Assembly: GCF_002113885.1 (NCBI RefSeq)
Contig: NW_018408787.1
Location: 247,185 to 311,184, forward strand
DNA length: 64,000 nt
Direction of reading: 5' to 3'
Origin: Mizuhopecten yessoensis
Taxonomy: Eukaryota
Shown here piece by piece: positions 7,101 to 63,310 of this stretch; position 1 is the first letter of the stretch, and each line of letters begins with the position of its first letter. Both the position numbers and the translations under genes were made by a program. The notes under the pieces are model-generated. The model saw nothing but the letters and a program-made list of their open reading frames with translations, had not been told where the DNA came from and made no database searches.

Positions 7101-9686
7101 TTTTACTATGATTTTTGTACATTCCCATAGCAACAATCATCTACTTGTGAGGCCGGTATGCCTCTCCACACATAGTTAAAGAGAAATAAAGCCCCGCTTG
7201 ACCTAGGTATATAAATGATCTTCAAATAACATGTAATTTCGAAACATTCAGTTGGGTCACTTAGGAGATTGACATGTTATAAATCTGGTGAGCAACTTTT
7301 ATCATTACATCAGCCTTAATGCCGTATTTTTGACTTCGTTGACCTGGTTATATTCCTTTTTAATAGCTCATGTAAAAGTTCAGTGTATTTAAATTACATA
7401 TATATATTCCGATTTGTGATAAGAATATTTGAATATGACTTGCCATGGGGTTGAAATTTAGGGTGACTATTACCTCTTTTAGGGGGCTTGTTGAACCTTA
7501 AGCAATCAATATACATAATTCATACAAATGATACAATTAGTAGCGCCGTATATATTTTTCATAATAATATATCGGTATAATGAAACAAGGTTTTTTCGTT
7601 GGAACATAAGTCTAATAGGTCAAATACATACAAATAATGCCATGATAAATTTCAAACTGCACGGATATTTTTCTTTCATACTAAAATTAATTGAAAAACT
7701 TGACAAATAAAAGAAAACACAATGAAATCTAATGACATCTATACAATTAATCAACCTGTATAACTCGCATATCCATGAGTATCCCGTTGTACAAAATCTA
7801 ATTTACAACCTAATTTTTTATCCGTTAATGAAGTGATAATTGGTCAGTCACACAGTTTGTGGTGCGAGTTAAAATTAGGGCATAGTTCGACAATTTGTAG
7901 TATCACATATGTGTAATTATATTTTCAATGCTTTAGGTCTCTACGCGCGCCTCTCATTTCGTGGCTAACAGCGATGGATCCGTGGACTTTCAGTATTCAG
8001 ACGGTATGCTCCTTATTATTTAGATCAGAACCCCGTTAATGTTATCGTAATAACTTCAGGTGACAGTCAATCAAAATAACATCGACCAGAGAAAGGTAAA
8101 ATCAATACTTAGGTATTTCTTGCTGTTTTTTCATCAATCTTCACTTGCTATACATCCTTATCAATTAATGTCACCAAAACCATTGACAAATCAGTAGAAA
8201 AAAAGAAAAAAAAACCAAAGTAATTAGCTAGTATTTTGCTTTTTGTCAATGCAGGATCATGCCGACACATCATCAAAGTGAAATAGTGTTAGCTTTACCT
8301 CTTGTTTGTTTTCCAGCGACTTGCATACCGAAGTGGGACGGCATGTTCTGTAGAAACGGGACTTTCTGGAGTAACCGTACGTGATACAGTAGCATCTGGA
8401 AAAGCTTAAACATATTGTGTCTCCAATCATTATCCATACACCACAACATCCAAGTCATATCAAAATGAACGCTTCCTCGTGTTAAATGATAACAACATGG
8501 GTGACATTTCATACAATAATATCAAAATATTGTTTGCTATGAATATCACAATTTCCTATAAATAAAGAAAATACTAACGATTGTTATAATCAGGCATCAC
8601 ACTTTTTCACACATGTCCGATATAATAAAATGATTTAAATTATAAATAACAAATTTGTTTTGACATTATGTACTGATATACATGCGAAATATACTTACAT
8701 CAGATATAACATTATATATACATGTTTTTGCATGAAATCGTAATTGGTACAAAGGATCAACCTACACTGCATACGTATGTAAACTAGTTGAGCGCATCGA
8801 AAATTAAGATGTTTGTTTGTTTCAGACACGGCGCAAGTTATGAAATTCTTCGTTGGTGCTGAATGGACTAAGCAAGGAGATGGTGGTATCCAGCCGGCTC
8901 TTGTCCAATCAACGCCTGGCATGTTTACCGTGCAAAGTGGGGGTCTTTACCTCATCTATATTAACGTGAGTTGAGCTCTTAAATATCGCCTCTTTATAGG
9001 TTTTATATGTGTAATTGGAGTAAATTGTTTACGTCATAAAACGCTCGCATTACATCCCTCTATTACAATTTGAATTTTAGCTGGTAAAAAGATGATCAGC
9101 AGAAGTTAAATAGTCCACTCAAGATCAGTTTAACTAGTACATTTTAGGTTTACATATTAACGTAGACATTGAAATTTGATAAGTTAGTCTGAATGCGGTA
9201 TGCTGCATATAACGCATATCTTCAGATATCATTTATGACAAAGGGTATAACAAAGATGGGAATCAACATTCCCCTGTGAGTGATAACAAGAAAGCAAAAT
9301 GTAATAAAACATACAGAGTATTCAAATTAGAACCACTAAACATAATCTGTTAGATAGCACTGGGTTCACTTATGTTTGTAACCGTCTAGGTGATAATCCG
9401 AACTACAGAGGACAAACATGACATCGAAGTGTACAGTGACCAGACACGCCTATTACGATGTCGACAAGGACTGGACTATGTCCGGCAGACGGACGACAGG
9501 TTCCTGTACTCGAAGACACGCACGTGCAGTGTCATGGGTCTTTTCTACTTGGAGGATGGCGCTGTAGTGACGTCAAGGGTTCTACAGGCAAGGACTACAC
9601 TGTCTCTTGGACCGGACAGCACTAACTTTGGCGCTATCCATTATAATACGCGCCCGCAACTCCGTGATATCAGTTTTGTTGGTTAG
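4118..9686 (+). CDS. TNF superfamily ligand gene 1 (type II membrane protein, no collagen, ~338 aa, 7 coding exons)
   Basis: Exons: 4118-4462 (TM ALWSFVSLGSFLVICCFIM); 4707-4782 (VVKRRPHKK); 6187-6218 (RSRAVR, furin-type); 7937-8003 (strand A, ASHF); 8317-8376 (CIPKWDGMFC); 8826-8965 (FTVQSGGLYLIYIN); 9390-9686 (RC...TC...TNFGAI). All junctions are GT-AG and phase-compatible. Confidence 0.88.
6408..7497. mobile_element. Non-autonomous DNA transposon (MITE) with ~400-bp imperfect TIRs and TTAA target duplication, Kolobok-like
   Basis: TTAA|GGTTCAACAAGCCCCCTAAAA ... TTTTAGGGGGCTTGTTGAACC|TTAA. Inverted similarity continues over ~6408-6805 versus ~7100-7497. No ORF. Confidence 0.85.
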
Positions 9687-9879
9687 AAGTGTACATATGA
9701 TCAATATCAAAAGTGTAGTTACTTGCAAGTTTTTATACATATGATAATGTAAAATTTAAGATATTACTCATAATAATGACATAACAGGGAAAATGATTTC
9801 AAAGTATGACACTCTTACTTCAGTGTTTGCCCCAACTTCAATATGTATAAGATCGGACAAGTTAGGGGGAGGGGACGAA

Positions 9880-10050
9880 AGGTTACAGCAGGAATAATGG
9901 TCACAGCTAGAATGATGGTTACAGCAGGGATGATGGTTACAGCGAGAATGATGGTTACAGCAAGGATGATGGTCACAGCGAGAATGATGGTTACAGCAGG
10001 GATGATGGTCACAGCGAGAATGATGGTTACAGCAGCGATGATGGTTATGA
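9880..10050. repeat. 18-bp minisatellite (ATGATGGTTACAGCRAGA), ~9 copies, downstream of the gene 1 stop
   Basis: Directly visible; explains the spurious MMVTAR and AVTIIL ORFs. Confidence 0.9.
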
Positions 10051-12045
10051 TGACTGTTGTTTTAGTTCATCTGTCGAATACGTATACCTACAAACAATGA
10101 TAAATATCTCCAGCTACAGATATGAATGTCATGGAACATATATATATATGTGGATATATGTGTTATGTCAATTGTGTTTCATATGTGTTTTAGCAATAAA
10201 AAATTGTGTTATAATTATATGAAAATTTATATTATGTTGTTTATTATTTCAAAACTGCCAAGGAATGTCGAATTATATACTCGAATTGAATTAGATCAAA
10301 AACTTTATTATTTACAAACAGCAGTTAATCTGTGGTAGAAACAGTAGTCATATTAAGGTGACATTAAATTGGTTAAAGTATTACTTGTTTTAAGTTTGGA
10401 ACTTAATATAAAATTGCAAATGCTGATAGATACGATTTGACCTAAACGATATACTACATAAAAAGAGATCAGCTTTGATTCGAGCAGTTTACCCTTCCTG
10501 AAAGTTGTCAGTGCTAAGTCGTATTGTTTACCCTTTCCTAATAGTGCCTGTAGTTATTCGAGATTATTGCTCTCTGTTAACGTTGTTTCTATTATTTTGC
10601 TCTTTCAGATAATATTTTAGTGTTGACTCTTGCATTTGCTCTTTCCGGAAAGCAGTCATTGCTGGTTCGAGCAACTTTGTACTGTCACTAGAATATAATG
10701 CACGTTTGAACGCTTAAGATTCTGCAGAAGAGATGCAAGCACATCCTTAATTAGCACATTTAATTGAAGTTAATATATATTGAAAATCAGGGCTATACGC
10801 TCATGCATTAGTTTCGAGTAAGAAACCATGAGAGAGAGATGATCGCTCCACTTGTTAATGAGTTCACATTTACTATCCTGTTATCTGAAATTTGTTTTAT
10901 ACCACAGTCCAGACAAGATACAATATTCGTTATGGCTTCAGTGTATTAAAATACTTTGAAATAAATCGTGGTTTTTAGATATTTTTACAATATAGTAATC
11001 CATATATAAAATACCTCTTTTTTTACACATATATATCCCAAACCTTATGTACTATATAAAGTAAAATCAATGTAGATTTTTGACAGATATTATAAACTGT
11101 ATTAATAAAAACAACATATGTTCATAATTGCCTCCCTAGTGCTATATTTTCATATTTTGTTTCTTAATAATGATAATGTATTGTTGTCTAATAAATATAT
11201 ATATATTTGATCTTACTTTTACAGTTGGTCAAGTGTAAATTTCTGCTGAATTAACGATATCAAATGCCACAAAAATATCGGTATACCAAGAATCCTTTTG
11301 TCACACAATAACCCTAATATTTGGAAGTTACACCTAAATAGCATTTCACCCGGACGAGGAAGTATCTTGTTAGTAACCTAACGACCTAACTGTAAAACGA
11401 AACTAGCACTTTTGTAGGTATTGTAGACCTGTAGCACTCATACAGGTTGTTACTGAACATTTCAAATCATTATGTAGTCATCACACGCATTTAGTTGTTT
11501 AATGAGGTATAATCACGTAAATAAATTATTCACAATTTAAACTAAATAACCATTGAATTTATTGGAGACTTGTTTTTTGTTTATTCTAAATATCTATTAG
11601 GATCCGTTAAATAAGGACGTCGGTTTACCTTCGTTTACAGCTATATTACTGGTTACCGTAACATGTATTACATAAACATATCTCACAACCACAATATAGT
11701 TCGTGTTATCTGTATTTTTGATACACCTAATTAGACAGAATGAGACCACAGTTATAAGCATCGATTTGGCGTGGTGCGGTGACATATTAAGCTCCGTGAA
11801 TGTGAACATTAAGGACGGCGTGTTGTCTCAGTTGCAGTTTGACCTTGTTACTGAGAACTACTAGGTCATTCTTCGAATCACAGACTACATTGTCAGGTAC
11901 TGTCTGAAGTACACCAGTCGTACTCGAGGTCTGTTACCAGCCGGTCACTCTTATCGCCGAATATTACCGGAAGTACATACCCCCTATCAACTACGTCGGA
12001 TTTGGCTGGAGTCTGGACCCTGATTTTATCGACAACAGAAGAAAA

Positions 12046-15000
12046 ATGAAAACGAAAGTTGTTTTTGACGGAAATCACCATGGGCCTTGCATAGAGGCAG
12101 ATCAACATACAGGTTGTTGGCCTCTATGCCTGGCCAGGTGTACTTTTTACGGGGTGGTATGTATATATATGTTATGGTCAGCGCGGGAAATCGCCATCCT
12201 AAAACAGTATCAAGAAACATGCAAACAGGAAGAAGGGCGAATGAGTGTACCTGCACAAAAGGTAAACAAACATGGCAGGCTAAGCTTTACTTTCGTATAT
12301 CTTACAAAGCGAAAGGACAAATGTGTATGATGCATACTTATAAATTGATTATATATATTATAAAGTCATGTTGAATAGGTTTATGGATATGACTGGTTTA
12401 AAATAGATTGTGCAAATAATTTCCGAGACGGTAGCATCAACACATTTAAGTAATTTTATTGTTGATTTACACATCTAATCTTGAGAGTCGTTATCTGATA
12501 ATGGCTCGTTTTCAAGTATTTAGCATCTGTATTCTCGGTAACTCATCTTAAAGATAAAAAAAATGGTGCAAAGGTTTCCACGAAAAAAAAGAGTTTTTAA
12601 TGTTTGTTATTTTGGCGGTGAGTGTTTTTACATAATACTTGGCGTAAGGATTTATTCTTTGTGTGTTTTGCAAATAGAGGGAAGATGGATTCTTGCAAGA
12701 TATCGACGCACCTGTTTTGTTGGATGTTGGAGCATCTGACAACGTTGACCAATCATTAAATGAAAAAAACAATCTTCATCGCATTGCAAGGGCCGCTGAT
12801 CCTGGTAAAAGGAAAAAGAAATCGGGTATATAAGGCTACTAACCTTTTACATCACTGCATGTAACCGTCACGCGTGTAACATTAAATACAGACTCATTTA
12901 TCTAATATGTACATGCACTAAGTGGTCATACACGTAGAGTCGTGATTAACAAAAAGGGCTTTTCCTTAAAATAAAAAAATAACGTTGTGACTCCAATAGG
13001 GAAATTAATATATAATTGCATTAGTGCACATAACTTAAGCTGGCCTAGCTTCCACTTACGACTTTATTCTTTAAGACGATGTAAATACTATTTCATGTAA
13101 TTAATGATGAGGGTCTATAATTGCATTAGTGCACATAACTTAAGCTGGCCTAGTTTCCACTTACGACTTTATTCTTTAAGACGATGAAAATACTATTTCA
13201 TGTAATTAATGATGAGGGTCTACACGCATACATTGTATTGATGGCCAATGTTTTGGTAAACAGTGTGTTGACAGCCAATGTTTTGGTATATCTGGTATTG
13301 CTACATATACTCCTGTGTTTTGATATACATGGTATTAATAGCTAGTGTTTTTGTATACACTGTATTGTATTGATAGCTAGCGGTTTGGTATACATGGTAT
13401 TGGTAGCCAGTGTTTTGTATACACTGTATTGTATTGGTAGCTAGCGTTTTGGTATACATGGGATTGGTAGCTAGTGTTTTGTATACACTGTATTGTATTG
13501 TTAGCTAGTGTTTTTGTATACACTGTATTGTCTTGGTAGCTAGTGTTTTTGTATACACTGTATTGTAGTGTTAGCTAGTGTTTTTGTATACACTGTATTG
13601 TATTGATAGATAGCGTTTTTGTATACACTGTATTGTATTGTTAGCTAGTGTTTTTGTATACAATGTATTGTATTGATAGCTAGCGTTTTGGTATACATGG
13701 TATTGGTAGCTAGTGTTTTGTATACACTGTATTGTATTGATTGCTAGCGTTTTGGTATACATGGTATTGATATCCAGTGTTTTTGGTAAACATTGTATTG
13801 ATAGCATACATTTTTCATACATGCTATTGTTTGGTATATTAATTAGTTATAGTTATTGATCTGTCGCATTTTAACATGATTCACAGGTAAACGATCCAGA
13901 TGCCCAAAGAAGTGTCGAAAAGGTGGTAGGGGCCCAAGAGGTCCAAGGGGTCCGAAAGGTCCACCCGGAGGGCCGACAGGACCACCAGGCCCACCTGGTA
14001 GCCCAGGTCAACCAGGAACAATAGGATTACCTGGCACACATGGACCGCCAGGGAACCTTGGACTTCCGGGTAAGTGCGCATATTGTTAATGCTGCTTAAA
14101 CATTTTAGGTATGTAACGGTACTGACAAATCTAAATGTTCCTATTTATGCACTAGTTATTGTATGTTAGAGTAAATAATAAAATGTTTCATTATATTGGC
14201 ATTACAGTTAAAACAGGATCGTTGGTTGCAATATAAAAGACAGCAGTTTATCACAAAAGGATTACCAGCCTTTGTGTCCTTGTTAGTTACTAAATATACG
14301 ATGCATTTATATTACATTTCTACGTCCTTCTCCCCAATTATTCTCAAATTATACACTTCTTCAGTGTCATATTTTAGCATATGTATGGATATGTATTCAT
14401 ATCAAACTAGATATATAGATTTATATTAAACGATACACTAAGTTAATTAGGGAGAATTTTGAAATATGAATAAATTAGATAAATTACAAATTTACATTAA
14501 TAAATTCGACAATTGGATATTTTGTATGCAGAAGTTATGAATAATGAAACCAATACTACTGATATAAGGCATTATTGATTATTGTTCTCACATACAACCG
14601 TATAGTCATGGACGATCGATATGAACACGTAAAGCATATGACTCTACCCAACTACATTTATTTATATATATCGAAACCGTCTGAAAAGTGTAGAGAACCT
14701 TTTGATCAATGTTGTATTAAGGGGTCACTGACTTTATTCAAATAAAGTTAAATATGTGTCTCAAGTGTAGGGAAATGCACTTTGCTTTATCATTTATATA
14801 CACGTACTAAACAGCCCCATACACGTACTAAACAGTCCCATACACGTACTAAACAGCCCCCACACACGTACTAAACAGCCCCCATACACGTCCTAAACAG
14901 CCCCCATACACGTACTAAACAGCCCCATACACGAACTAAACAGTCCCATACACGTACTAAACAGCCCCCATACACGAACTAAACAGCCCCCATACACGTA

Positions 15001-18000
15001 CTAAACAGCCCCATACACGAACTAAACAGTCCCATACACGTACTAAACAGCCCCCACACACGTACTAAACAGCCCCCATACACGTACTAACCAGTCCCAT
15101 ACACGTACTAAACAGCCCCCATACACGCACTAAACAGCCCCCATACACGTACTAAACAGCCCCAATACACGTACTAAACAGCCCCATACACGTACTAAAC
15201 AGCCCCATACACGAACTAAACAGTCCCATACACGTACTAAACAGCCCCCATACCCGTACTAAACAGTCCCATACACGTACTAAACAGCCCCCATACCCGT
15301 ACTAAACAGCCCCATACACGTACTAAACAGGCCCATACACGTACTAAACAGCCCCCATACACGTACTAACCAGTCCCATACACGTACTAAACAGCCCCCA
15401 TACACGTCCTAAACAGCCCCCATACACGTACTAAACAGCCCCCATACACGTACTAAACAGCCCCATACACGTACTAATCAGCCCCCTGTCTGCTTAATAA
15501 ACCCACTTGGAATACATAGAAACGCATTGCTTATTTTATATTTTGTCTGACGTTGTTTGTGAAAAAGTATATTAGTTCGTAAAAATCATTAGCCAATATA
15601 AATTTACCGTTAAAATACATTTCATTATTTATGTAGCAATATTTGATTCTCATTATTTAGGATTATACTGTAAGCAAACGATTTTTCCCTTACTCCAATT
15701 CAATAGATTTGGACTGTTAAGATTTATGTTAATATAAATATAATATCTACCAGTAAATATTTGATATCAATTAACTTTATACGGATAAACAAATGTCAAT
15801 ATAATATATATCAAACCACTGTCTTTCATTGCAATATATATCAAAACGTTGTATGTTAATACAATGTATACCAAAACATTGTCTACGAATACAATATATA
15901 CAAATACACTGGCTACCAATACAATATATACCAAAACACTGGGTACCAATACAATATATACCAAAACACTGGCTACCAATAACATTTATATGCCAAAACA
16001 CTGGCTACCAATACAATGGATATATCATGACATTGGCTATCAAAACAATATATACCAAAACACTGGCTAACAATACAATATATATATCATGACAATGGCT
16101 ATCAATACAATATATACCAAAACACTGGCTACCAATACAATGGATATATCATGACAATGGCTATCAATACAATATCTACCAAAACACTGGCTAACAATAC
16201 AATATATACCAAAACACTGGCTACCAATACATTATATACCAAAACACTGGCTACCTATACAATATATACCAAAACACTGGCTACCAATAACATTTATATG
16301 CCAAAACACTGGCTACCAATACAATGGATATATCATGACATTGGCTATCAATACAATATACCAAAACGCTGGCTATATAATGTATATATCATGACACTGA
16401 CGATCAATACACTATATACAGTATACGAGTCGACCGAATACCAATACACTGGCTATCCATAAACTGAATGCTTATACACTGGAAATTAATACACTGAGAA
16501 TGATACAATGATAATCAATACACCTGTTAAATACACTGGACATACATTCACTGAAAATCATTACATTTGGAATAAAAACACTAAATACTAATGCGCAAAC
16601 CTTGTGTTCTGTAGGTGTGAAGGGTGACAAGGGGGAACCAGGAAAGTCGGTAAGTCTGCTATCAACATTGTCTCAGATTATCACTAAGATGTTTGTTGAC
16701 AAGTCGTTATTTACCACAGAAAAGAGTAATATTCAGATTTAACGATTACGAATCACACACTGATGTATAATCACCAAAACCATAGTAACACAGAGAATGG
16801 AACAACGTATTTGAACAATTTATATGTAAATGCAGATTGAAAATATAATTTTATGAATGACACACTCATTAAACAGCTTTTTGGAACATACATAAACAAA
16901 AGGTATTAAAAACTATTATATACTTCAACTAGTATTCCATGTTCACCTCGTCAGAATTACCTCCAGCACCAAGATTACGACCGACCTCGTAGACTGATAG
17001 TCTACCAGCAGTGTCTATTTAGTCACCTGTATGCGTAAGATAATCATTAGAAATATGAAGAAAATATCAACTTTATTTATTTTACAACAATTATGAAACA
17101 AGTTATTTCAACTTATATTAATCACTCTTGGTGGCCCGGGTGTTAGCGCGTGGGAGGTCTTAGTGTGGGAGGAAACCGGAATACCCGGAGAAAACCCACT
17201 TTGTCGGGCAGGTGACCCCAACCTTTTCACGTCCGATCGGGGAATCGAACCCCGGCCGCCTTAGTGAAAGGCAAGTGCGCTATCCATTGCACCACTCGAC
17301 CACCCTTCAAATATGAAGAACGGAAGCACCTATCAGTCAGGAAGTTAAACATAGAAAACAACCTATTTGTCAATACACTTACATTGTAGATGAAGTTATT
17401 AAGACACACACTCAGATATTATTAAACTCAATCAGAAACATCTACATATTATCAGAAATTCAAACTGATATTTCCATAACACAATAGCATTGTCAATGTT
17501 CTTTTGACTTTCTAAGGTGACGACTTTTGCTGCCCATTTTATTCCCGAGAGACCTCATCGAATACCCAAAAGTGTAGACTCAGGTAGGTGGACACTATTC
17601 AGCAGTTAGTAGGGGGTTTATGTGTTGGACACCTATACTGTAGCGTGCGTTACCTCATGGGTACCTATCTCCTGCTTGCACTTTTGTTAAAAGCATAAGC
17701 TGTTAAATGGAAAACGTTGATATACACTTTTTAAACGAAGAAAAAGATAAAAATGAAACCTTAACGTAAACACATAAAAAAGAACGGAACTCAAGGTTGA
17801 CCGGGAAGGATAAGAATATGGATAAAAGTGACGCCGAAACAAAAGGAAAGCAATTATTAACACTCACAAAACAATGAAAAAAAACCCCAAAAAAACTAAA
17901 CAACTGCAGGAAGTAACCGGCCCAGTTATTTTCTATGAAGCTTACGATACCAAGAAGAAGCAAAAACCCTCCTGGGTAGTAAATACCTTATATGTCAGTA

Positions 18001-21000
18001 CGTGCTCCCGATTACATAAGATTCTATATTTATATTGTGTATTGATAGTTAAATGGCCAAAAACTCATACCATGCTTGCAAGAAAATATGTAAAGTATTG
18101 CAAGCTTCATGGCAGTTTTAGGTGAATTTTAAATCAGATATTTTGATAATTTACAAAACTAAAAGCACAATTTGTTTGTGATGGGATTCCAAATAAATAC
18201 CCAGAGTTGGTAAGCACAACTATCTCGTGTATTTCTGTACACAAACGAATTGAATTAGATATTTTGTTTACCAGTAAGTTGATTTATCTTGATTTGACTG
18301 GGTATATATGTATATAAATGTATGCATTGAAAACGTGATATTGTGCAGCCATGTCGACGTAATGATATGCAGTCATTTGTGTTACGGTGGAGTGCAAAGT
18401 CATGCTATATCTGATAACCTGTCTGCTCTCAGTGTTTGTAAACAGCTTCCAGCTGGCGTGAAGGTCATTTTACCTTGACAGGTTATTCAATTTACAAAGT
18501 ATATATAGTGTTCAGAAGCTTCGTAAGCTATTTAACACACAAGGGTATTTTTGAATTTGTTAGGTTGAATTATTTTATTGCAGGAAGGTTTTAAATGGTA
18601 TCTTCAGAAAATAGACATGTCAAATACTGATTCTTATCCCAATGCAATAGGCTTTTACGTATTGACAGTAACCTCCCTTTATTTCATTTGAGATGTTACT
18701 GTAGTACAGTTTGGCAAACACACGTCCGTTACCAGGTATCGCAGTCCGTCAGAGCGATGTAAAACAATATACACTCCAGGGTCCGAATCCAGGTCTAGCC
18801 CTGCAAAATGAGACACATTTTCACGAAACTTTTGAGAGGAAAGATAGAAAGTTGAATTCGAGTCACATCTGAGTATTGCTTTTTACACAATACAAATTAC
18901 CTCTTGCAACTTACAATGAAAGAATATCAGAATGTTTCAGATCGATTTGAAAATGGTGTTGTATAACCGATGCTTAGGAAATGCATTGGCCTATACATTA
19001 TAATACATCCATACTGGAAATATCTTTATCAATCTGAGATATCAAGATTATTCAGTGGACGCTTTAGTATGAATATGTTAACGTTTGACTTTACTACATA
19101 TGTTTCGTTTTGTTCTGTTTGACCTTACTACACGTGTTTCGTTTTGTTCTGTTTGATATTACTGCACGTGTTTCGTCTTGTTATTGTTTGACCTTACTTC
19201 ACATGTTTCGTTTTGTTACTGTTTGACCTTACTACACGTGTTTCGTTTTGTTCTGTTTGACTTTACTGCATGTGTTTCGTTTTGTTACTGTTTGACCTGT
19301 TACTGTCTGACTTTACTACACGTGTTTCGTTTTGTTCTGTTTGACTTTACTGCACGTGTTTCGTTTTGTTACTGTTTGGCCTTACTACACGTGTTTCGTT
19401 TTGTTACTGTTTGGCCTTACTACACGTGTTTCGTTTTGTTCTGTTTGACTTTACTGCACGTGTTTCGTTTCGTTTTTTTACTGTTTGACCATGCTACACG
19501 TGTTTCGTTTTTTTACTGTTTGACCATGCTACGCGTGTTTCGTTTTGTTACTTTTTGACCTTACTACACGTGTTTCATTTTGTTACTCTCTGACCTTACT
19601 ACACGTGTTTCATTTTGTAACTGTCTGACTTTACTACACGTGTTTCGTTTTTTTACTGTTTGACCTTACTACACGTGTTTCGTTTTTTTACTGTTTGACC
19701 ACGCTACACGTGTTTCGTTTTTTTACTGTTTGACCATGCTACACGTGTTTCGATTTGTTACTGTTTGACCTTACTACGCGTGTTTCGTTTTGTTACTTTT
19801 TGACCTTTCTACACGTGTTTCATTTTGTTACTGTCTGATTTACTACACGTGTTTCGTTTTGTTCTGTTTGACTTTACTGCATGTGTTTCGTTTTGTTACT
19901 GTTTGACCTTACTACTCGTGTTTCATTTTGTTACTGTCTGACTTTACTACACGTGTTTCGTTTTTTTACTGTTTGACCATGCTACGCGTGTTTCGTTTTG
20001 TTCCTTTTTGACCTTACTACCCGTGTTTCATTTTGTTACTGTCTGATTTACTACACGTGTTTCGTTTTGTTCTGTTTGACTTTACTGCACGTGTTTCGTT
20101 TCGTTTTTTTACTGTTTGACCATGCTACACGTGTTTCGATTTGTTACTGTTTGACCTTACTACGCGTGTTTCGTTTTGTTACTTTTTGACCTTTCTACAC
20201 GTGTTTCATTTTGTTACTGTTTGACCTTACTACACGTGTTTCATTTTGTTACTCTCTGACCTTACTACACGTGTTTCATTTTGTAACTGTCTGACTTTAC
20301 TACACGTGTTTCGTTTTGTTCTGTTTGACCTTACTACACGTGTTTCATTTTGTAACTGTCTGACTTTACTACACGTGTTTCGTTTTGTTCTGTTTGACCT
20401 TGCTACACGTGTTTCGTTTTTTTACTGTTTGACCTTACTACACGTGTTTCGTTTTGTTACTGTTTGGCCTTCCTACACGTGTTTCGTTTTGTTCTGTTTG
20501 ACCTTACTAAACGTGTTTCGTTTTTTTACTGTTTGACCATGCTACCCGTGTTTCGTTTTGTTACTGTTTGACCTTACTACGCGTGTTTCGTTTTGTTACT
20601 GTTTGACCTTACTATGCGTGTTTCGTTTTGTTACTTTTTGACCTTACTACACGTGTTTCATTTTGTTACTGGCTGATTTACTACACGTGTTTCGTTTTTT
20701 TACTGTTTGACCATGCTACCCGTGTTTCGTTTTGTTACTGTTTGACCTTACTATGCGTGTTTCGTTTTGTTACTTTTTGCCCTTACTACACGTGTTTCAT
20801 TTTGTTACTGTCTGATTTACTACACGTGTTTCGTTTTTTTACTGTTTGACCATGCTACACGTGTTTCGTTTTGTTACTGTTTGACCTTACTATGCGTGTT
20901 TCGTTTTGTTACTTTTTGACCTTACTACACGTGTTTCGTTTTGTTACTGTTTGACCTTACTACAAGTGTTTCATTTTGTTACTGTCTGATTTACTACACG

Positions 21001-23384
21001 TGTTTCGTTTTTTTACTGTTTGACCATGCTACACGTGTTTCGTTTTGTTACTGTTTGACCTTACTACACATGTTTCATTTTGTTACTGTCTGATCTAACT
21101 ACATGTGTTTCGTTTTGTTCTGTTTGACTTTACTGCACGTGTTTCGTTTTGTTACTGTTTGACTTTACTACACATGTTTCGTTTTGTTACTATTTGAACT
21201 TACTACACATGTTTCATTTTGTTACTGTCTGACCTAACTTCACGTGTTTCGCTTTGTTCTGTTTGATATTACTGCACGTGTTTCGTTTTGTTACTGTTTG
21301 ACCTTACTACACATGTTTGGTTTTGTTACTGTTTGAACTTACTACACATGTTTCATTTTGTTACTGTCTGATCTAACTACACGTGTTTCGTTTTGTTCTG
21401 TTTGACTTTACTGCACGTGTTTCGTTTTGTTACTGTTTGACCTTACTACACGTGTTTCGTTTTGTTACTGTTTGAACTTACTACACATGTTTCATTTTGT
21501 TACTGTCTGACCTAACTTCACGTGTTTCGCTTTGTTCTGTTTGATATTACTGTACGTGTTTCGTTTTGTAACTGTTTGACCTTAATACACGTGTTTCGTT
21601 TTGTTACTGTTTGAACTTATTACACATGTTTCATTTTGTTATTGTCTGACATTACTACATGTTTTTTGTTTTGTTATTGTTTGACCTAACTACACGTGCT
21701 TCGTTTTGCTCTCTTTGACTTTACCACACGTGTTTCGTTTTGTTTCTGTTTGACCTTACTACACGTGGTTCGTTTTCAGCTCGGGCGACGTGTGAAGAGA
21801 GATGGGGTGGGCGATATTGTTACGGCTCAGACACATTTTTCAGTAAGAGTAAGTATATATAACAAGTGATTGCGGTAATAATACAATTCTTCAAACAATG
21901 CTTATTCTTTTTCCGGTTTGAGCGTTTAAAAAATTATTAATGTTTCAGGCCACATATATCTTCCACTTTTCAACTTTCACCAAGGAGGCAATGCAAACAT
22001 TACCTTTTTCAACTAAAATTGCATTTTTGAAATGGTTTGCTTGTTATTATTGACAATATATTTATTTCATTATACTTATGAATAGAAAGCATAATTGAAG
22101 ATTACAAACTTAATGCAGTAACAACCCACCATAGCTAATAAACCATTAGTACACAGGAAACCTTGGTCAGATGAAGGTGCAGTATACAAGTTTATATCAT
22201 GTTTTTACTAATTGTCAGAAACTAACCAGATCATGGAGTTTCTGTCGGATCAGTCCCTCGGCAAGTGGACAGAGTCACCATTAGATCGACTTCACGACGG
22301 CAAATTCAAAGTCAAATACGACGGCATCTACCTCGTCTATCTAAACGTATGTTAATTATGTCATTTTTTTAACGTATTACAAAGGTACGTGTATTTTCTA
22401 TTAGACTAGATATATGTATTATATAAAGATGCCACATTAAATGCAAGTACAAATAAAGTATTTTTTTCTTGATTAAATATAACCCATAATATTCGATTAC
22501 CTGTGTGATCCAGACATTTGATTTTTACCATTGCAGACACTTCTTTGAAAGTTGAACCTGTATTATTAAACATAATCTGTCTATTCAGAACGGGGAAATT
22601 AAACCCATTGGTATTATCTTCATGGTACATTCTGAATAGTCATGTAGAACCTTCATCGATTGTCGCAGACTATCAGGATCTTTAAATGAAAAACGAAAAT
22701 ACACAGTAATTTGTTTAAAAACACAAATGAAAAACAATAATCATTAATATAAAAAGTAACCCACCAGAACGTGTTTTCTTCAATAACTATGGTCTCATAC
22801 ATTCAACAAATATGCAGTCACAAAATTAAATGCAACATGATTGAGATAGCACGGTATAAATAATGAATGGAAGCAAAGAATAGATGTCAGGTATATAAAT
22901 TAGCAGAAAACCAACAGAAGATTATTCCAAGAATATATTGATTTAGTTCATTTGATTACTGAAAAAAACATTATCAACAAGATATATTTTGCACATATCA
23001 AAAGATGATAAAGTGTATTTGTAAAACAATATAAGATCTATTTAACATACGCGATTGAAATATCCTTTCTGAAATAATGATCTTGACTTTATCAACGTTT
23101 TACAGGCCCAGCTGTATGTTTATGATGTTCACTACGCTGTGGCGTTGTACATCGGCAAAATCGACTCCGACCCTGACCTCATGTGTACGGTTGCTACGGA
23201 AAAAATTTCATCCCACACAATGAATACGAAATATGATAACGCCAGGACAAAATCATGTGCGACAGTAGGTACATTCTACATGGAAGCTGGTCAACATATC
23301 TCGGTCGTCATGCAGGAACCGAACAGGGCCATACGTATCAAGGACGGCACAAATTTTGGCGCCATTTTACTGAATTCTGGCTGA
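12046..23384 (+). CDS. TNF superfamily ligand gene 2, ectodysplasin-like architecture (TM, furin site, collagen, THD; ~374 aa, 8 coding exons)
   Basis: Exons: 12046-12261 (TM); 12678-12825 (RIAR|AA, KRKKK); 13887-14069 (CPKKC + Gly-X-Y); 16615-16649 ([12 protein letters not shown]); 17517-17583 (AAHF); 21780-21848 ([10 protein letters not shown]); 22219-22346 ([16 protein letters not shown]); 23106-23384 (TNFGAILL). Frame is intact throughout. Confidence 0.92.
13011..13220. repeat. Tandem duplication, 2 x 105 bp
   Basis: TATAATTGCATTAGTGCAC...GATGAGGGTC starts at both 13011 and 13116. Confidence 0.9.
13231..13830 (-). repeat. 30-36-bp satellite array; reverse complement of the array at 15800-16470
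   Basis: Units like TATTGGTAGCTAGTGTTTTGTATACACTG(TATTG). Confidence 0.85.
14797..15486. repeat. 22-23-bp minisatellite ATACACGTACTAAACAGCCCC(C), ~30 copies
   Basis: Directly visible head-to-tail array with no spacers. Confidence 0.95.
15800..16470 (+). repeat. 30-bp satellite array (ACAATATATACCAAAACACTGGCTACCAAT)
   Basis: Directly visible; gives the [10 protein letters not shown] spurious ORFs. Confidence 0.9.
17124..17306 (-). mobile_element. tRNA-derived V-domain SINE
   Basis: On the - strand: A box TGGTGCAATGG, B box GGTTCGATTCC, then V-domain GGGTTTTCTCCGGGTATTCCGGTTTCCTCCCAC. Confidence 0.8.
19083..21779. repeat. ~35-bp minisatellite (GTTTGACCTTACTACACGTGTTTCGTTTTGTTACT), ~2.7 kb, in gene 2 intron 5
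   Basis: Directly visible. The last unit ends ...CGTTTTCAG at the exon 6 acceptor. Confidence 0.95.
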
Positions 23385-23704: not shown

Positions 23705-23882
23705 ACGAGGAATTAACGTTACGAAGTCATTACAATGTGGCCTGCAGTCATTCAACATTAATTGTCTAATGTATTGTGATAAATCTGTTAAATCATTACG
23801 AGGAATTAACGTTAAGAAGTCATTACAATGTGGCCTGCAGTCATTCAACATTAATTGTCTAATGTGTTGTGATAAATCTGTT
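23705..23882. repeat. Tandem duplication, ~2 x 93 bp, downstream of gene 2
   Basis: ACGAGGAATTAACGTTA... at 23705 and 23798. Confidence 0.9.
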
Positions 23883-25125: not shown

Positions 25126-27214
25126 ACAGGCACATCATTGTTAAACCTCTCGTGTTAACATTTACAACATCACGTTAACATCCCATTTTGCGAAAATGTC
25201 TTTATGTTTCCCTTTATCGTAATTACAAATCTCTTTCGCAAACAGCCCCTCTTCCCGGAATTTTTTCCTTTCGCTATAACTTCCTTCTCGTACAGTAGAC
25301 AGGGTATTGCACAGTCTATAATACATCGTCATTGTACATACATTATACGATGCAAATTTATACATATTAGGCGTAGCGGAACGTTAACAGTTTGCTAAAT
25401 TTGACCTCATTTTAAGACAATTTGTATAATGAAATGCTAACTTCATATTTCTGTATTCAATTACACGAACAGTAGTGTACCATTTGTACTTTACCCCCTA
25501 AACTAATATTTATGTTTTTAAAGTCGGGCGTAGAACAAATCTATATCAAGCAAAGGACCTTGGACTATAAATAGACTACTGCATTGCGGTAGTGATACTG
25601 AATTGGGGTTCAATCTTGAAGCAGGTCAAGCGTCTACACCTAAATATAATAACTTGTCATATGATTTGTTGTTACATTTAAACTCTAATGTAAGACTATC
25701 AAGCCTTGTAACAAGTGTTACTCAGGTGCACGTACATTTCTAAACAATAAAAAAAATGTAAATATTTGCAAATTCATGTCAAAATCATGATACTCTCGGA
25801 TATGCTGCTTGACCTGAATACTTTTTGGCCTGTAACTCTTCCTAAGTATATATCTGTGCAAAACGAAAACTAGTATAACAATTCTTTTTATTTTTTAACG
25901 GTTGTTATCTTCACTTGAGAACAGATACACAAAAGATAAAGATAATTTGTAGAATGTGATTGCTATATTGTGACCGGTATGACACACTCCAATACCAAAC
26001 GGAAGAAAAAAAGTAATGTTTAGGAAAATACAACGAGAGTAGGAAAATACCAACACTCAGGGTCAAAACCCAGAACCAGGAAATATTTGTGTCATATGTA
26101 ACATTACGAAATTCCAGGAAAGACGTGTGTCACATTTTGACCCCGTTATGATATCACTCGCCAAATGCAGAATGGGGTTGTATCATCTGTTGGCCCAATA
26201 AGGTGATAAAAGCATGTTTGTTTCAGTTGTAATGACAAAGAAAACAATCACTTGTTACCATAAGGTATCATTTAGCTTATAAAAACCCAATATAAATGAA
26301 TTGCCTGATAAGATATTGGCCTCAGCGATCTAAGTAATATTGAACGTACACTTCATATCACATGTATCATAATTGACAAATCCTATAGCTGGAAACAGGT
26401 CACTGATGACAACTGTAAACATAATCAGAAACTGAATAGCCAAGGATAGAAAACCATGTTTAGTTAAATTTCAGTTTTAAACAATATTACTTCATTATCA
26501 AGGTTATTTTTATTACGATGAACATATGAACAAAACTCAGAGTACATACAAGTTACCTCCAATTACCTCCCCTATCCTGAATGTACATACTTTCCTGGGA
26601 AAGATGTGATTATATCTTCGCGATACAAGAAGGTTTAAAAACAAAACGACTTTATAACAGCTTCACAAAAATCACTGAATAATTATTTTTGTAACACGAC
26701 GAAGGTATATACACCCTCATATCAATCAAGTTGTACTATTTTATTTGTATAGAAATACACTTAAATGAGGAACTATAGTAATGCAGCGTGCATACATGTC
26801 TGTACTGTTGTAACAGTCTGTGCTAATTTTCAAGTCAATACACCTGATAGGCGTTGTTTGTTATGATTTATTTCGTATGCATATGAAACGAACTACTTAT
26901 CTTTGCGATTTTTAGATTTAGTTTGCATTCGTTTTTAATATTCACGTTATATCTGTATTTTAGGTCTCGATTAACGACACACAATTGGTTGATGAATCAT
27001 AGACTGATGTTGAGGAATATATATTCCTACAAAGTCCCGCCTGTATTGAGGTCAAGCAAGTTTTTCCCCGAATCGCTCAGAATATATTGGCCCAATATAA
27101 GGGTCGGTTGTTACAGACGCGAGTAAGTTGCTGACAAGAAGGACGTCGGTACCACACGATAGTCTGTATATAGGTCATTGTGTCACTAGCCGTATGCTAT
27201 ATTATAATAACAAA

Positions 27215-30200
27215 ATGAAAGTAGTTTTGGATGGAAAGAAATATAGACTAAGCAAGGAGACAGATCGACTTTGCAGTTGTTGGCCCGAAAGCTTTGTCAG
27301 ACATACCTTCTGCGTCTTTGTTTGTGTATATATACTTTGGTCAGCGTATGAGATTGTCAACTTGAAAAAGGAGATACACCTACTAAAAGATGGTCATGGT
27401 TCAAAATCGGCTGAATACAAGGTAAACAAACCCACGACGGATATGGTCTCTCGTCCCGATACATCGCATACGTATGCAAACTGTAAACGTTTTATTGTGC
27501 ATTTTCTGTTTACTATCATGCATATGGACATTGATTTTAATTAGATGATTTTATCTAAAAGTTATTCTGATGATTAATTTTCGATTTCTATTAACATCAC
27601 AATAAATGTTTAATTTTTAAAGACATTTATTATTAAACATATTAATAAACACTGCACACGTGGATACATTTGCTTACAGATAAGTTCAGTATCTTATTAA
27701 TTTTAATTTTCTATTCCTGCATGTCGGGACATTTAAAATATCGTTTAATATTATTCAAATTATCCGGATCATTTTCTATTTTGGTTTAATAATCCTTTCA
27801 TTTTAATAATAATTGTATGCCTTTCGGTTCGTTGCCATTTGAAATTACATCAACGTTTTTTTTCTCAGTTCAAGTGTGAATGCAAATGTATTACTTACGT
27901 TTTTTTCAAAGCATTTAATTGAATTTATTACATACTTTATATAACATATATTGGTCACAGAGGAGTTCATTGAGTTCTAAAACCAGTCATCTATAAGTGG
28001 TGGAAGGGGAACACCACAACATCCCACAGGAACATTCACTTGACGACACAGGTTTCATATAACTTTAAAGGAATTTATTTCTTGGAAAATATCACTTTAG
28101 AAATTTACGGGTTTTCTATGCTTAGAAATCCCATATTCTGATAGATTATGTATTTTTTATTAGATTCTTGGAAATACCTTTGAACACGTGACAACTGATA
28201 ACATACCCTTGACCTTGGATGACACGTACGACGGAACCCATAATGTGTTTGAAGAACCTGTATTTCATCGTGTTGAACGGGCAGTTCATACAAAGGGTAA
28301 AAGAAAACGAAAACAAAAATCTGGTACTTATTTTTACTAACACTTTCATTGGTAATGCTACCTAGCCCTTAAATTGTATCTAAATTGATGCTTACCTTTA
28401 TAATAGAATTGGTAACATTATATATATGTATGTATTATTTGAAAATTCACACTTACAGCATTCTAACACGGAAATACATTATAATTTATAATGCATGGGT
28501 GTGGTTGCGAAACATTTGATAACTAAATGCTGTATTTTTTTCTGGTTGAGTTCGTATTCTATCCTTGTGTATTTAAATGAAAGAATGGTATCTTTTTACC
28601 ACATTGTCATTATTACAAACATCGTGTTCTGTGGAACAGGATGGCAAAAGCTAACGTCATAACAAGATTTTTACACATTTATTAGTGTAGTATATTTATA
28701 TGACTGGTGTTGTAGTTTGTTAACATTTTGACACGCTTGAAATGCACAAACACGTAAATGATTTAAGTGTGCTTCAAGTTATCATCCTTTTGTGTGTGTG
28801 TGTGTGATAAACTAATTTAACGGCATGTGTCGGTTTAACAAGTTACATGTATAACATAGATATACAGATCATCACATGCAGCTGATGACTAGCAATATAT
28901 TCATGATATTGTAGCCAGCACAACTCTTATGGAGATATATTACTTTGTGAAATGCCTGATTGTATACTTTGTCCAAACACTTAATCTTCTAAATCCGATT
29001 CATGCTATACCTTGCAGGTCACTGGCATAGCTTTACGCTTTGTCAGATACATAATTACAGCAAACCCACTTATTACTAAACCACACTATGCCTGACTGAT
29101 CAGCGATATGATAAAATATAATACATACTAAATAAAATATTTCAGCAATATCTATGATCTGTTTTATTGAAATTCGTTAAGCTATACTCACGATAATTTC
29201 TGATCGATACAAAATAACGGTGACCGTGATTACTATAACGAGTAATCATGACACGTTTCAGCTTTTCATTACACTAAATAAAGGCATACTCAAACCATTT
29301 TATTGAGCTTGTTATTCATTTTGATATAGTTGTTTCGCACAAAAAATGTCTTCTTTTAATAGAAAGCTGAAAATATTTTTATTTATCATTTATGTATACT
29401 AACGGTACAAAGTTATTAAGGTCCTGAATATTGCTTTCCAATTACCACTAAAGAAAAAAAGCGGAAATGTCCAAAGAAATGTAGAGGCCCTCGTGGTTTT
29501 CGGGGATTGAACGGCAAACCTGGAGTTAACGGCACGAAGGGTGTTCAAGGGAGTCCCGGGATAAGCGGACCGCCAGGGGAACGAGGACTCACGGGTCCCA
29601 TGGCGCCACCGGGACAGCCTGGACTTCCTGGTAAGACTACACGCCATCCCTTCAGATGCTTAACATTTATTACATATACACACAAAATATAGCTTTTTCG
29701 CCTAATATATATTTTTGAAAGAGATTCACATCAAACATTAAAAATAAATTTAAATTTGATTCGTGATAAACAGTCACACAACTTTCTTCAGAAATATTTC
29801 AAACTGTAAATATAATGATTTTTTTAGCTTTGCTTAAAATCTCCATTTTTTTTTTTGTTGCATACGTTTTCAGAAATTGCTGTATTCAACAATTTCATTA
29901 CTCAATGTAGACTACTTAATTGCAGAATAAACCTTATGTAACATCAACACTTTAATGGTATAGTGAATTATATCCGATTTTCAAAATTTCTGTTTCAGGA
30001 ATACAAGGAGCGAAAGGAGAGTCGGTAGGTCATTACGTTTATCGAATTATCCGCATTCACCAGAAACTGCATATTTAAACTTGTAAATTAAAGCAAAAGG
30101 GAAATACAAGAACCTCAGCTAATCGAAAGTTTATGGTATTTGTTGGTTAGAATTATTGTCATATTAAATTTGTAACCTGAATAGCCAGTTACATAAAGGG

Positions 30201-31761
30201 TTCTAGTTCCTTCAACTTGTTCATATCTCAGTATCGTATCACAAGTCAGTGGTATGTCTGTATACTTTCCTCAAGAACAACAGTTAACCCACCAGTTTCT
30301 AAAACGTGTTTTACCTGACAGATCAGCGTCATGGCGGCACATTTCATCCCAGGTTTACCATCTAAACAAGACATGACCAGCGTTGACTCGCGAACAGGTA
30401 AGCTTCTTAGATTTTGAATGATTGAAATACTATCTACACAATTAACATTTCTGATTTTGAAAAACAACAATAAAATACAATTTTTAAGCATTTGACGGTA
30501 ATTGATAGTGTAGTATTGTCTCGTGTTGGACATATGGTATAAAGTACATGTCTTCCAGGATTTCGCAACAGACATACCATGTAAGTATACCAAATGTTAT
30601 ACAGACTGCTGTTATACTGTTTGTTCATTTGTAGATTCAATGGAATGTGTGAAGATGTGGGGAGGGGACTATTGTGCATCAGATAACACTTTCCACAGCA
30701 AAGGTAGGCAACATTACCGTGCACTGTAAAAAGGAAGGGCACATGTGTTTTTCATCTTAGAAGGCCGTGTATGCGTTTAATCAATAATTAATCAGATGTT
30801 AATCAGAAGACGTCACATTCAACATCGACTAATATATATTTAACAAGTGATGGTAGAAAAATACTTACACCTGACACCTGTAAGTAAAGTCGTGAACAAA
30901 TACTGAATGATATTTCAGGTAGCTGCTTATCATTTCATACCGCTGCTGAAATATTATATTTTAAACTTTAAACCTTTAAAAAAATCATATAAGTGTAATA
31001 AACGAATATATATTTTATCAAAACTTTTATGGGTAAAATTGTGTCATACCTTTTATCTCCAGTTGATAACCATGTTATGGAGTTCCTGACGATCCAATCC
31101 TTGATAAATGACGTGAAACATCCCATTGAGAGGCTGTTGAATGGGAGATTCAATGTCCTGTACACCGGCCTCTACCTGTTGTATATAAACGTAAGTGATT
31201 AATTAAAATGCCAATCATTCTTTGAATGCATACTGTAACCTTTCGTTAATTTTCCATGTATCATTGACGCCAGCAAGTAAATAATGAGATATTGCATATT
31301 ATACCATGTATACAACTAATATTTTGTGAAAAGATAGCTAAACAATAATTCTTACAAAGAAAGCCCATAAAACATATTTTCTCTAAAACTAAGCTGTACT
31401 ATTATTTGACGTTTTAGGCGGTAAAACCTAAAACAAAAATTAATACAGCATGTTTTCTATCATCTAGTCTCAGTCTCTGGTCCGGGATCTACACCACGAA
31501 ATGGGTCTGTTTATTGGTGATATCAACTGGAAGAGAACAGATATGGAGCTGTCATGTATTGTGGCGACCGACCACTTTCACGAAAGCATGACCAACAGGC
31601 GGATCAAATACAAGGGAGCTAGGACAAAGTCGTGTGGAAACGTTGGCATGTTCTACATTCAAAAGGGTCAAACGATATCTGTTGTCATCACCAGCTCCGA
31701 CAGGGCTATACTGCTTAATAAGCACACAAACTTTGGAGCCGTGTTACTATCACAGGGCTGA
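27215..31761 (+). CDS. TNF superfamily ligand gene 3, ectodysplasin-like, closest paralog of gene 2 (~378 aa, 8 coding exons)
   Basis: Exons: 27215-27421 (TM; alternative ATG at 27194); 28164-28323 (RVER|AV, KRKRK); 29454-29630 (CPKKC + collagen); 29999-30024; 30322-30397 (AAHF); 30635-30703 ([10 protein letters not shown]); 31063-31190 (TGLYLLYIN); 31468-31761 (TNFGAVLL). The 69- and 128-nt exons match gene 2 in size. Confidence 0.92.
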
Positions 31762-36192: not shown

Positions 36193-36517
36193 CAATACAT
36201 ACATGCTCAGCACTAAATCGACACAGAAGCTCGCGCATTGTAAATGTATTAAGAGTAGAGTTCTCTGCAGGGTTTTAAGTTATATCAGTGCCCAAGTCCG
36301 AGTATATGATAGATAGTTGGAAAATAATCAATTATTTACTTCGAACAGTAATGCCTTTATAAGGGTTTCTGAGAACCGCCTACATTATAAATAGATCACG
36401 TTTTACTCTGGTCCCAGATAATATGTACAGTATATATTTGCTTATTCAGAACTGTATGTGACCTATTTTGATTAGTCATGTGCTCCTTAGAGTCAAAACG
36501 AAAGTAGAAATGTTAAA

Positions 36518-39500
36518 ATGAAAACTAACGGAGAACCCAGACAACTCGAAGGGTACAGGAACATAGGAAAGGGCAGTGCGTGTGTATGTGGACATTGGTT
36601 TGCAGTGTTAGCATGTGTTATCTCAACAGGAAGTTGTTTGTGTACAGTCGTCCTTTATCTTGAGGTACGGACTCTACGTGGGGAAGCAGAAAGACAACAT
36701 GTACAGTCACCGGCCTTCAAAACAAGTCATGAAATAAAATCGTCTACTGAGGTAACCACCGTACTCTCCGATGTGCTTGTATGCATTTTTCATGTAATGA
36801 GTCCTTGCGTTTTACATTAGTTGAAGTTAATCGCTTGCTCGTTTGTTAAACATTTCCAATTGATTTTCTCTCATATGATTGTTCTTTTGCAGTACTGATT
36901 CTATTGATATCGCAGCTGTATAGTTATCAAGTAATGCTAATTTTGTAATTATTTTCAGAATACAACGTTAGACCTTCGGACTCAACTGTTAAATAGACAC
37001 GTACACAGCCATACCTATAACAACGGTCACAAAGGCGAAACAAGTGTAACTGGCCTCGCGAGTTACCGTGAGAAACGAAAAACGGGGGAACGAAACAGTA
37101 AATATCATTACAATTTCATTTATTTGTCGAGATTATTTCAAGCTGTAGTTCGTTAGCTATATCCATGTTACTGATATATTAAACATTTATAGAGTCGCTG
37201 GACTGGGCCAGTCGCCAATAAGTAAATAGCTAACATATCATGTTCATCTTGAGTTCGTCATCCTAGTCTGGTCATGCTTAACACTTGTTTGTTACATTTG
37301 CCCACTCATTTTATATGCACAAAAGACTTGTGCAAATTTAACGTTTTTAATTACAGAACAATCCTGTTCATGTCAGAAAGGTGCGAAAGGTTCCAGAGGT
37401 CGAAATGGCAAGAAAGGTAAGCGAGGAAAGAATGGGAAAAGGGGAAAAAAAGGACCAAAAGGCGATAAAGGAGAGACAGCAGTGATAGGGGATATAAATT
37501 TACCAATCGGTAAGTAAACAGCGTCTGTATTACACACGTCTTTATCTAGGCAAACAACAACATTTTATGTTACAAATTTGAGGTAAAATTGTCTCATGGT
37601 TAATCTGAAATTTTATCAGAAGGAAAGTAACGTAACGTACATAATCTACCTAAAGTTCATTATACGGACAATGGTAACCTCTACAATTTCACACGGTATC
37701 TGAAAATTTGCACATATAACCTTTAAATGTTTCCTAAAGTTTACATATTGTAAAGCTGTCCATTACTACATAGTAAACCTGAATTTTACATAATGTAAAC
37801 GTGATTTTCATAACATAGTAAACGCAAAGGTTTTACATTGTAAAGCTAAAGTTTAACATAAGAAATACCTAACGTGTATCTGGGTAAAACGTAGATTTAT
37901 CATATAATAAATTTCAAGTTATAGTGAATGTAAAAAAATAGTAAAATTAAAGTTTTGTTTATCCTATTTGACGGTCAGATAAAGCATGATTTTTTTTATC
38001 CTTTTATACAGTAAGATACACTTTATTTTTCATTTATACCTTTTGAAGGTTAAATAAAGCATTCATTGTTGGTAACTACTTCAGAGTTAGATACAAATGG
38101 CCTAGACTTTAACTTATATGTGATGTATCTTTATTAAAGGAATACCGAGTGGTAATGGTGGGCTACAACCGATAAATGTACGTAATTCTTACTTAAAAAT
38201 CCTAGCATGATATTTTTATAAGCGTATGGAAAACACTATATAACGCATATAATGTGCTGAAATCCTCAAAAATGACAGCAATCAAAAATTGAGCATAAGA
38301 TTATCAAAGACGTGTTAACAGTGTCTTAAATGTATCAAGTGTCCCAACGCTTAAACTTCCGGAACACCATGAATCGCTTGCGGTTTCTGAGGAGCTTGAA
38401 TAATATATATTTAATTTGGAATATTATCGCATTCTTTTGTCTGTTAAAATGCGAACTGTTGAAGGTGTAATTAAGAAAGTCAGTATGTTCCCCTACCTTC
38501 TCTATGAATAAATTAGATGCTATTATGTTCTTCAGGGACATCGCCATGTCCACTTCATCAGTGATTATGACAAAGATGTACCATGGGATGAATTTAAAGG
38601 TAGGTTATTTGGTAAATAGTAGGTTAAATGTTGGCTAGATAGTCCGTTAAACGTTATAGTCACTTTCTCACACATCATTTAGACAATGTCTCCCGTTTTA
38701 CCAGTTTAGGACCTCTCTGAAACCGCTTTGTTTACTTCTATCATTCCCTACTAAATGACAGATAGCCCTTAGAAACAAAACAAATACGCTGATGTCACGA
38801 GAACAATAACATATGACATCAAGATAAGCTTTTGAAAAGAGAAGTCACGTGGACATAAGGATAATAAACATATTACGAATGCTGATTTTCATTGTCTGCA
38901 AACATATCATTGATAGAATGAAAGGAAAAAAATCATCTCCTGCGGTGAGGATAAGTCAGAGAAATTGCAACCATGTGAAATTCTTGAATGTTCAACCCCC
39001 AACTTAATCAAGCCTCTGGTCATATAACCAAGACTTTTACCTCTCAGGTTGTGATTTCTCTGTCACACCATCAAAGTGGTAAACATTCAAACAAACTGTA
39101 GATATGATATTTAGGACGAGCAGCAATTAGTTTAAAGTTTACCTTGGATAGCGTTGCGAACTATCTTTGCTTGACAGCAAACAAAGTAGTAACGTAGTGT
39201 ATTTTAACCATGTTTTGATTTAGCAACTTCTTTTCGGGAAAATTTACGTCTGAACAAATAATGTCATACAGTATATTATAGACATTTTGAACCAGTGTCT
39301 CACACATAAAACATTGGTTTTACAGGTAGAGGGTGTCGTTCACTGTTCGATGGCGAGGTGTGTAGAAATAGAAGGTTTTCTACTACAGGTAAATATACAC
39401 AATGTACCCAAAGAACTGTACCTCAATATGAACATTTAATGACCTTCGATATAACATTTCTGGTCACCGTCTATAACATTTGTATATATATGAATTCGTT

Positions 39501-63287: not shown

Positions 63288-63310
63288 GTAAGTGAACCTT
63301 TTGCTTAAAA

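Follow-up and report, generated by a model that had tools for sequence, protein, structure and literature searches.

TNF ligands of the EDA and Eiger type are the closest described counterparts of the genes considered here, a cluster in a 64-kb stretch of DNA from the scallop Mizuhopecten yessoensis (the window, meaning the whole stretch analysed). The window contains five tandem TNF-ligand genes on the plus strand, plus the start of a sixth, and genes 1-4 carry a short exon, here called the hairpin exon, that splits the TNF domain between strand A and the remainder.

EDA (EDA-A1 and EDA-A2; PDB 1RJ7 and 1RJ8) resembles genes 2-4 in combining a type II membrane segment, a basic cleavage-type site, collagen and a TNF domain, and has in common with the scallop genes a phase-0 intron after strand C (the EDA c.924 donor, as given in the accessible part of PMC5015951). 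Unlike the molluscan ligands, with which it shares ~20% identity, EDA has no A-A' hairpin. Splicing within its TNF domain switches the receptor (PMC4731439, in the portion available), but this switch consists of two residues elsewhere in the domain, whereas the molluscan cassette comprises 20-24 residues. Arthropod Eiger (PDB 6I50 and 6ZT0) shares with the scallop ligands a long region after strand A and an E-F disulfide, but the latter is its single disulfide in the available text of PMC6684607, with no Cys-closed hairpin; the same text assigns the F-strand Cys of EDA/Eiger-type ligands its own E-strand partner. RANKL and TRAIL also have an enlarged loop after strand A, which the molluscan hairpin partly overlays in RANKL, but their structural scores are lower (Z 12.7-13.6). 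Neither is known to have a Cys pair or a separate skippable exon for this loop. Within molluscs the superfamily is expanded, with oyster MgTNF-3, abalone AbTNF-alpha and 23 Crassostrea gigas TNFSF genes as described members (accessible parts of PMC7674686 and PMC12843592). The hairpin loop is not described in the available portions of these two papers or of PMC6684607, PMC2684955, PMC8781899, PMC11869874, PMC3308963, PMC4731439, PMC5015951 and PMC6001812, though alignments or supplements of other molluscan TNF papers could already show it.

The scallop cluster consists of EDA/Eiger-type TNF ligand genes. The gene 2 domain model has Eiger as its top VIA match (Z 17.0, rmsd 2.0, 143 aligned), followed by EDA (Z 15.8-15.9), and EDA-A1 is its best Foldseek match (E 2.8e-10). 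The hairpin-bearing proteins are a new, evolutionarily old molluscan variant of this type. We consider it probable that all four exons derive as copies from a single old exon of molluscan EDA-like TNF genes, predicted to add a disulfide hairpin, often with a likely N-glycan, between strands A and A'; the exon is optional in snail models and included in scallop transcripts, and its product would likely serve as a surface attachment altering contact with partners, not as part of the core fold.

Hairpin exons and their splicing

All four hairpin exons (Table 1) are bounded by an AG acceptor and a GT donor and are entered and left in phase 1 in the full gene models. A preceding sequence-only reading had placed four phase 1-1 exons between strand A and the rest of the domain; its coordinates, ends and phases hold, while its exon peptides were slightly clipped compared with the full reads. 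The motif C-x3-[WF]-[DG]-G-x2-C occurs four times in the six frames of the window, once per hairpin exon, compared with 0.03 on average and at most 1 in 200 block shuffles, a test that is lenient because the motif was derived from the same four exons. In gene 1, 15-16 of the 19 residues are conserved in three scallop orthologues. Gene 5 has no hairpin exon, as the same reading had it: its strand-A exon joins the next exon directly in 17/17 M. yessoensis isoform sequences (of 20, two clusters). A two-Cys candidate exon in this gene (54852-54935) was rejected, as it is in 0/17 isoform sequences and its GT donor would give a stop at the next exon.

The hairpin exons of genes 2-4 are real and spliced. 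Spliced joints were collected from four RNA runs, two of them nearly uncovered, with a 3-read threshold. For gene 4 both flanks of the exon are joined, by 38599>39326 (5 reads in run X24, 1 in X23) and 39388>39654 (5 reads in X24). The downstream flank is joined in gene 2 (21848>22219; 5 reads in X24, 1 in X23) and gene 3 (30703>31063; 4 reads in X24, 1 in X22), and the upstream joints of these two exons were not seen, being outside the stretch or below the 3-read threshold. Inclusion in transcripts, the check suggested along with the original observation, is seen for these three genes. For gene 1, no spliced joints were found in any of the four runs, where the contigs are unspliced and shallow. 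Inclusion of its exon rests on the orthologue models P0007, P0009 and P0010 (Pecten, Argopecten and Ylistrum) together with the Logan proteins P0060-62 (Argopecten cluster), and a database protein, P0065, is by eye identical to gene 1 across the 3' junction of the exon.

Optional use of the exon is annotated in gastropods. RefSeq isoforms with and without the hairpin segment are listed for Haliotis cracherodii, H. asinina, H. rubra, Gigantopelta aegis and Patella vulgata, and all seven include/skip pairs compared differ in a single stretch of 23-24 residues and show a fused residue at the junction. The skipped unit is therefore a phase-1 exon, since only a phase-1 split codon explains the fused residue. 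Among scallops, the Ylistrum gene 2 orthologue model P0006 lacks exactly this segment and has the junction residue predicted for skipping of the gene 2 exon.

In a separate set of isoforms, the end of the strand-C exon varies by 2-5 residues (P0205/P0080 in Patella, P0197/P0095 in Liolophura, P0199/P0078 in Haliotis). We take this to be the place of the EDA-A1/A2 switch.

Predicted hairpin and molluscan range

For the gene 2 domain, AlphaFold (8 sequences, mean predicted local distance difference test score, pLDDT, 83) predicts two strands (27-30 and 33-36) ahead of a third (41-43), with Cys27 and Cys36 at the outer ends of the two hairpin strands (pLDDT 69-88). A homologue modelled without strand A (29 sequences, pLDDT 89) gives the same arrangement, with strands 8-11 and 16-19 followed by 23-26, and Cys8 and Cys19 on the hairpin strands at a local pLDDT of 94. 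In both predictions the two Cys thus face each other, in keeping with the proposal that a hairpin closed by Cys occupies the A-A' region. We infer a disulfide between them, because they occupy a paired position in the strand register and were lost as a pair.

The homologue model superposes on EDA from residue 21, equivalent to EDA 257 and thus after EDA strand A (which starts at 247-248). The hairpin is therefore extra relative to EDA, but the 3' part of the exon corresponds to the domain's own next strand, A'. Consequently, of the notion of a separate grafted insert, the additional hairpin stands and the separateness does not, as the exon also encodes the strand following strand A. On RANKL, the superposition starts at model residue 13, equivalent to RANKL 172, within the A-A'' loop (170-193, the range given in the accessible part of PMC8781899). 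Loop statistics were drawn from the 30 of 33 hand-picked loops that could be parsed; in 23 of these, the second Cys is followed by an N-x-S/T sequon, which within the window is present in gene 1 alone.

The exon is common to three mollusc classes. Word-index searches with the scallop profiles returned matches in Pectinidae only, and a full HMMER profile search returned 108 matches. Of 103 new HMMER matches, 20 were looked up; the 15 with a named source are 14 molluscs and one hemichordate, the latter without the Cys pair. Fifteen proteins with the Cys pair were looked up, and the 11 with a named source are all molluscan. The pair is present in bivalves (Mytilus, Saccostrea, Potamilus, Solemya and four scallop genera), gastropods (Gigantopelta, Patella, Haliotis, Physella and Candidula) and a chiton (Liolophura), which rules out a scallop-only subfamily. 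The ESM Atlas yielded generic TNF clusters only. Four Cys are present in the Saccostrea loop (P0071), where a second disulfide may accompany that of the hairpin.

A tree of 82 rows was obtained by a quick search on 134 columns, using domain cores cut downstream of the loop. Matches without the anchor or too short were dropped, Physella was mislabelled by the script, its pair being visible by eye, and no vertebrate EDA row is included. All 27 Cys-pair rows fall in one 47-row branch, with a Shimodaira-Hasegawa-like approximate likelihood ratio (SH-aLRT) support of 87, and gene 5 is outside it. The exon had been put forward as a subfamily marker, in agreement with this single branch, and its range is far wider than was guessed. 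In one branch, formed by Mercenaria and two further proteins, both Cys are gone together and the remaining segment is kept, as a single event.

Gene cluster

The M. yessoensis proteins align exon by exon to the genes of the window (Table 1). Gene 1 is 65-68% identical to its Pecten, Argopecten and Ylistrum orthologues. PF00229 scores above its Pfam cut-off in genes 2, 4 and 5 and in the Pecten orthologue of gene 1, and below it in gene 3 (19.8 vs 23 bits); the collagen family PF01391 is above cut-off in genes 2, 3 and 4, with none in genes 1 and 5. R-x-x-R or basic runs, i.e. cleavage-type sites, are present in the gene models, and by eye every gene has a hydrophobic stretch in exon 1 as its type II membrane segment. 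The strand-E and strand-F Cys are both invariant in a 29-row alignment, the E-F bond itself being predicted. A Pfam search identified 18 other TNF-domain loci in the genome, each matching Pfam over most of the domain inside one open frame, unlike the split-domain hairpin genes.

Table 1 Positions of genes and hairpin exons in the window
Feature	Position	Strand	Description
Gene 1	4118..9686	+	seven-exon gene for a type II TNF ligand lacking collagen, 338 aa; splice-site model
Gene 1 exons	4118-4462, 4707-4782, 6187-6218, 7937-8003, 8317-8376, 8826-8965, 9390-9686		
Gene 1 hairpin exon	8317..8376	+	60 nt, phase 1-1; Cys-x8-Cys, then N-G-T sequon
Gene 2	12046..23384	+	transmembrane segment, basic cleavage-type site, collagen, TNF domain; identical to P0001, OWF40528.1
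Gene 2 hairpin exon	21780..21848	+	69 nt, phase 1-1
Gene 3	27194..31761	+	RefSeq 'ectodysplasin-A-like' (P0002, P0022); collagen and TNF domain
Gene 3 hairpin exon	30635..30703	+	69 nt, phase 1-1; present in 2/2 RefSeq isoforms
Gene 4	36518..40410	+	collagen-like and TNF domain (P0005, P0038); includes mini-exon 38140-38177
Gene 4 hairpin exon	39326..39388	+	63 nt, phase 1-1; present in 2/2 RefSeq isoforms
Gene 5 (LOC110463616)	47006..60880	+	TNF ligand without hairpin exon

Gene 5 has two alternative strand-A exons, ~57363-57424 and 57981-58038, which along with shifted donors and acceptors (near 60149/60161) yield 20 RefSeq isoforms. The same exon pair occurs in the Pecten and Argopecten models, so that this splice choice within the TNF domain is conserved at the level of gene models.

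The sixth TNF-like gene starts at 63300-64000, and its divergent domain is found ~10 kb past the window (L021:1560-4435). Strand-A-like and strand-B-like frames were located downstream, and a hairpin exon is not evident there; a Cys pair read by eye in this gene was wrong, as the exon contains no Cys. Elsewhere in the window, a 35-bp repeat array of 2.7 kb (19076-21776) abuts the acceptor of the gene 2 hairpin exon. Between genes 3 and 4 (~33200-35800), broken frames resemble, by eye, a reverse transcriptase of the long interspersed nuclear element (LINE) type. A joint spliced on the minus strand (CT..AC; 10085-12710), supported by 3 reads of a single run, lies between genes 1 and 2 and points to a possible antisense transcript.

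Origin, function and meaning

Based on these data, we propose the following course of events. A phase 1-1 exon, spliced in scallop genes 2-4 and common to three mollusc classes, would be skipped exactly in five gastropods, as annotated in their gene models. It is predicted to encode strand A' preceded by a hairpin in which two Cys face each other, and the hairpin would be closed by a disulfide bond, as the paired position and paired loss of the Cys suggest. The exon may have arisen once, early in molluscan evolution, when the A-A' loop was enlarged and an intron gained, with tandem duplication in scallops following. The hairpin could then change how tightly a receptor is bound, or which one, by analogy with the RANKL A-A'' loop, which is linked to RANK binding (accessible parts of PMC8781899 and PMC2684955), and with the EDA-A1/A2 splice switch. 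We put the chance that the hairpin affects receptor binding somewhat better than even.

Several observations weigh against this proposal. The region is free of Cys in 19 of the 47 rows that make up the hairpin branch, so that the loop is dispensable or often missed, and the tree is a quick search on matches gathered with a profile built from loop-bearing proteins. In-frame skipping, as foreseen from the scallop sequence, is annotated in the five gastropod species but is not seen in scallop reads, which show no skip joint at the shallow depth of ~5 reads per joint. No skip isoform is present among the M. yessoensis or Argopecten gene 3 and 4 models, and both listed isoforms include the segment in genes 3 and 4 of M. 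yessoensis and Argopecten and in Liolophura. The gastropod skip forms are automatic annotations, known from models alone; such RefSeq models are usually based on RNA alignments. The disulfide is read from the strand register of two models, of which the second is without strand A, and the sequon is lost in genes 2, 3 and 4. Moreover, for the single cysteine-rich-domain receptors of Eiger/BAFF/APRIL-type ligands, modelling places the contact at strand D and the CD and GH loops instead of A-A' (PMC6684607, available text).

The hairpin could instead be a structural or glycan-bearing appendage serving folding, stability, secretion or protease resistance, with skipping as tolerated noise and no effect on receptor choice, which we regard as doubtful but conceivable. 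The frequent sequon is compatible with this role, and any symmetric exon is skippable in frame, but annotations have this very exon skipped in three gastropod genera, and both gene 5 and EDA fold without the hairpin. The Eiger-type receptor site is modelled elsewhere in the domain (PMC6684607, as accessible), yet the hairpin partly overlays the RANKL A-A'' loop. Sequence variability is in line with an appendage: between paralogs the loop is 23-45% identical and the rest of the domain 20-47%, and between orthologues the loop is as conserved as the rest of the domain or more, except in gene 4 (7/20 vs 107/157). A hypervariable loop is thereby ruled out, and the variability between paralogs noted in the sequence-only reading does not exceed that of the rest of the domain.

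Assembly through the loop, by ligand-ligand contacts or inter-chain disulfides resembling the BAFF flap, is improbable. Extended loops underlie the 60-mers of BAFF and the lattice contacts of Eiger (PMC6684607, in the part available) and the Cys are predicted to be surface-exposed in a protruding element, but they come and go as a pair, opposite each other in the models, and collagen segments are already available for clustering in these ligands.

Least probable of all is the graft originally suggested, in which a fragment of an epidermal growth factor (EGF) repeat or of a class B G-protein-coupled receptor (GPCR) ectodomain was shuffled into a phase-1 intron of a TNF gene; it is not supported, and we reject it for the EGF repeat, given that the EGF Gly before the aromatic (consensus as given in that reading) is found in 1/30 loops, that the spacing is variable, and that the only Pfam EGF match, of the gene 2 exon to JAG1-like_EGF2, is sub-threshold (E 0.011, 16.2 bits, cut-off 27). 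Cys-x8-Cys is the commonest spacing (18/30), but the range is x7-x12, the chiton and the majority of gastropods having x9-x12. The aromatic and Gly positions each match in 23/30 loops, but the segment has two Cys vs six in the EGF module, and its 3' half corresponds to a strand native to the TNF domain. A phase of 1-1 is common among EGF exons but is here imposed by the host intron. The other three exons have no Pfam match whatsoever, and none of the four matches the GPCR hormone domain at E<=10, 20-residue queries having little power; the W-D-G motif of class B GPCRs lies within a hormone-binding domain with three disulfides, and its two Cys bond other Cys, not each other. We read the EGF/GPCR likeness as a probable common preference of hairpin turns. 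Because the 3' part of the exon is the domain's own strand, the simplest history would be enlargement of the A-A' loop with a new intron, not import of a module.

Returning to the old molluscan exon as the favoured explanation, a bolder extension is that molluscs, before the split of chitons, snails and bivalves, evolved a second EDA-style switch. A cassette exon would then toggle the disulfide hairpin and its N-glycan and so change the receptor that is activated, in snails by splicing and in scallops by fixed, diverged tandem paralogs next to a gene without the loop, in which alternative exons vary strand A. We hold this extension to be speculative and unlikely as a whole, and would judge a true receptor switch, argued from analogy, rather unlikely too.

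Molluscan TNF families are large and their ligand-receptor pairings almost unknown. The hairpin exon provides a sequence marker for one molluscan EDA-like branch, and the natural loop-in and loop-out isoforms offer a ready paired experiment on the receptor choice of invertebrate TNF ligands. If the hairpin only stabilises the protein, it would be a modest structural curiosity; if it is a true receptor switch, it would represent an independent parallel to EDA-A1/A2.

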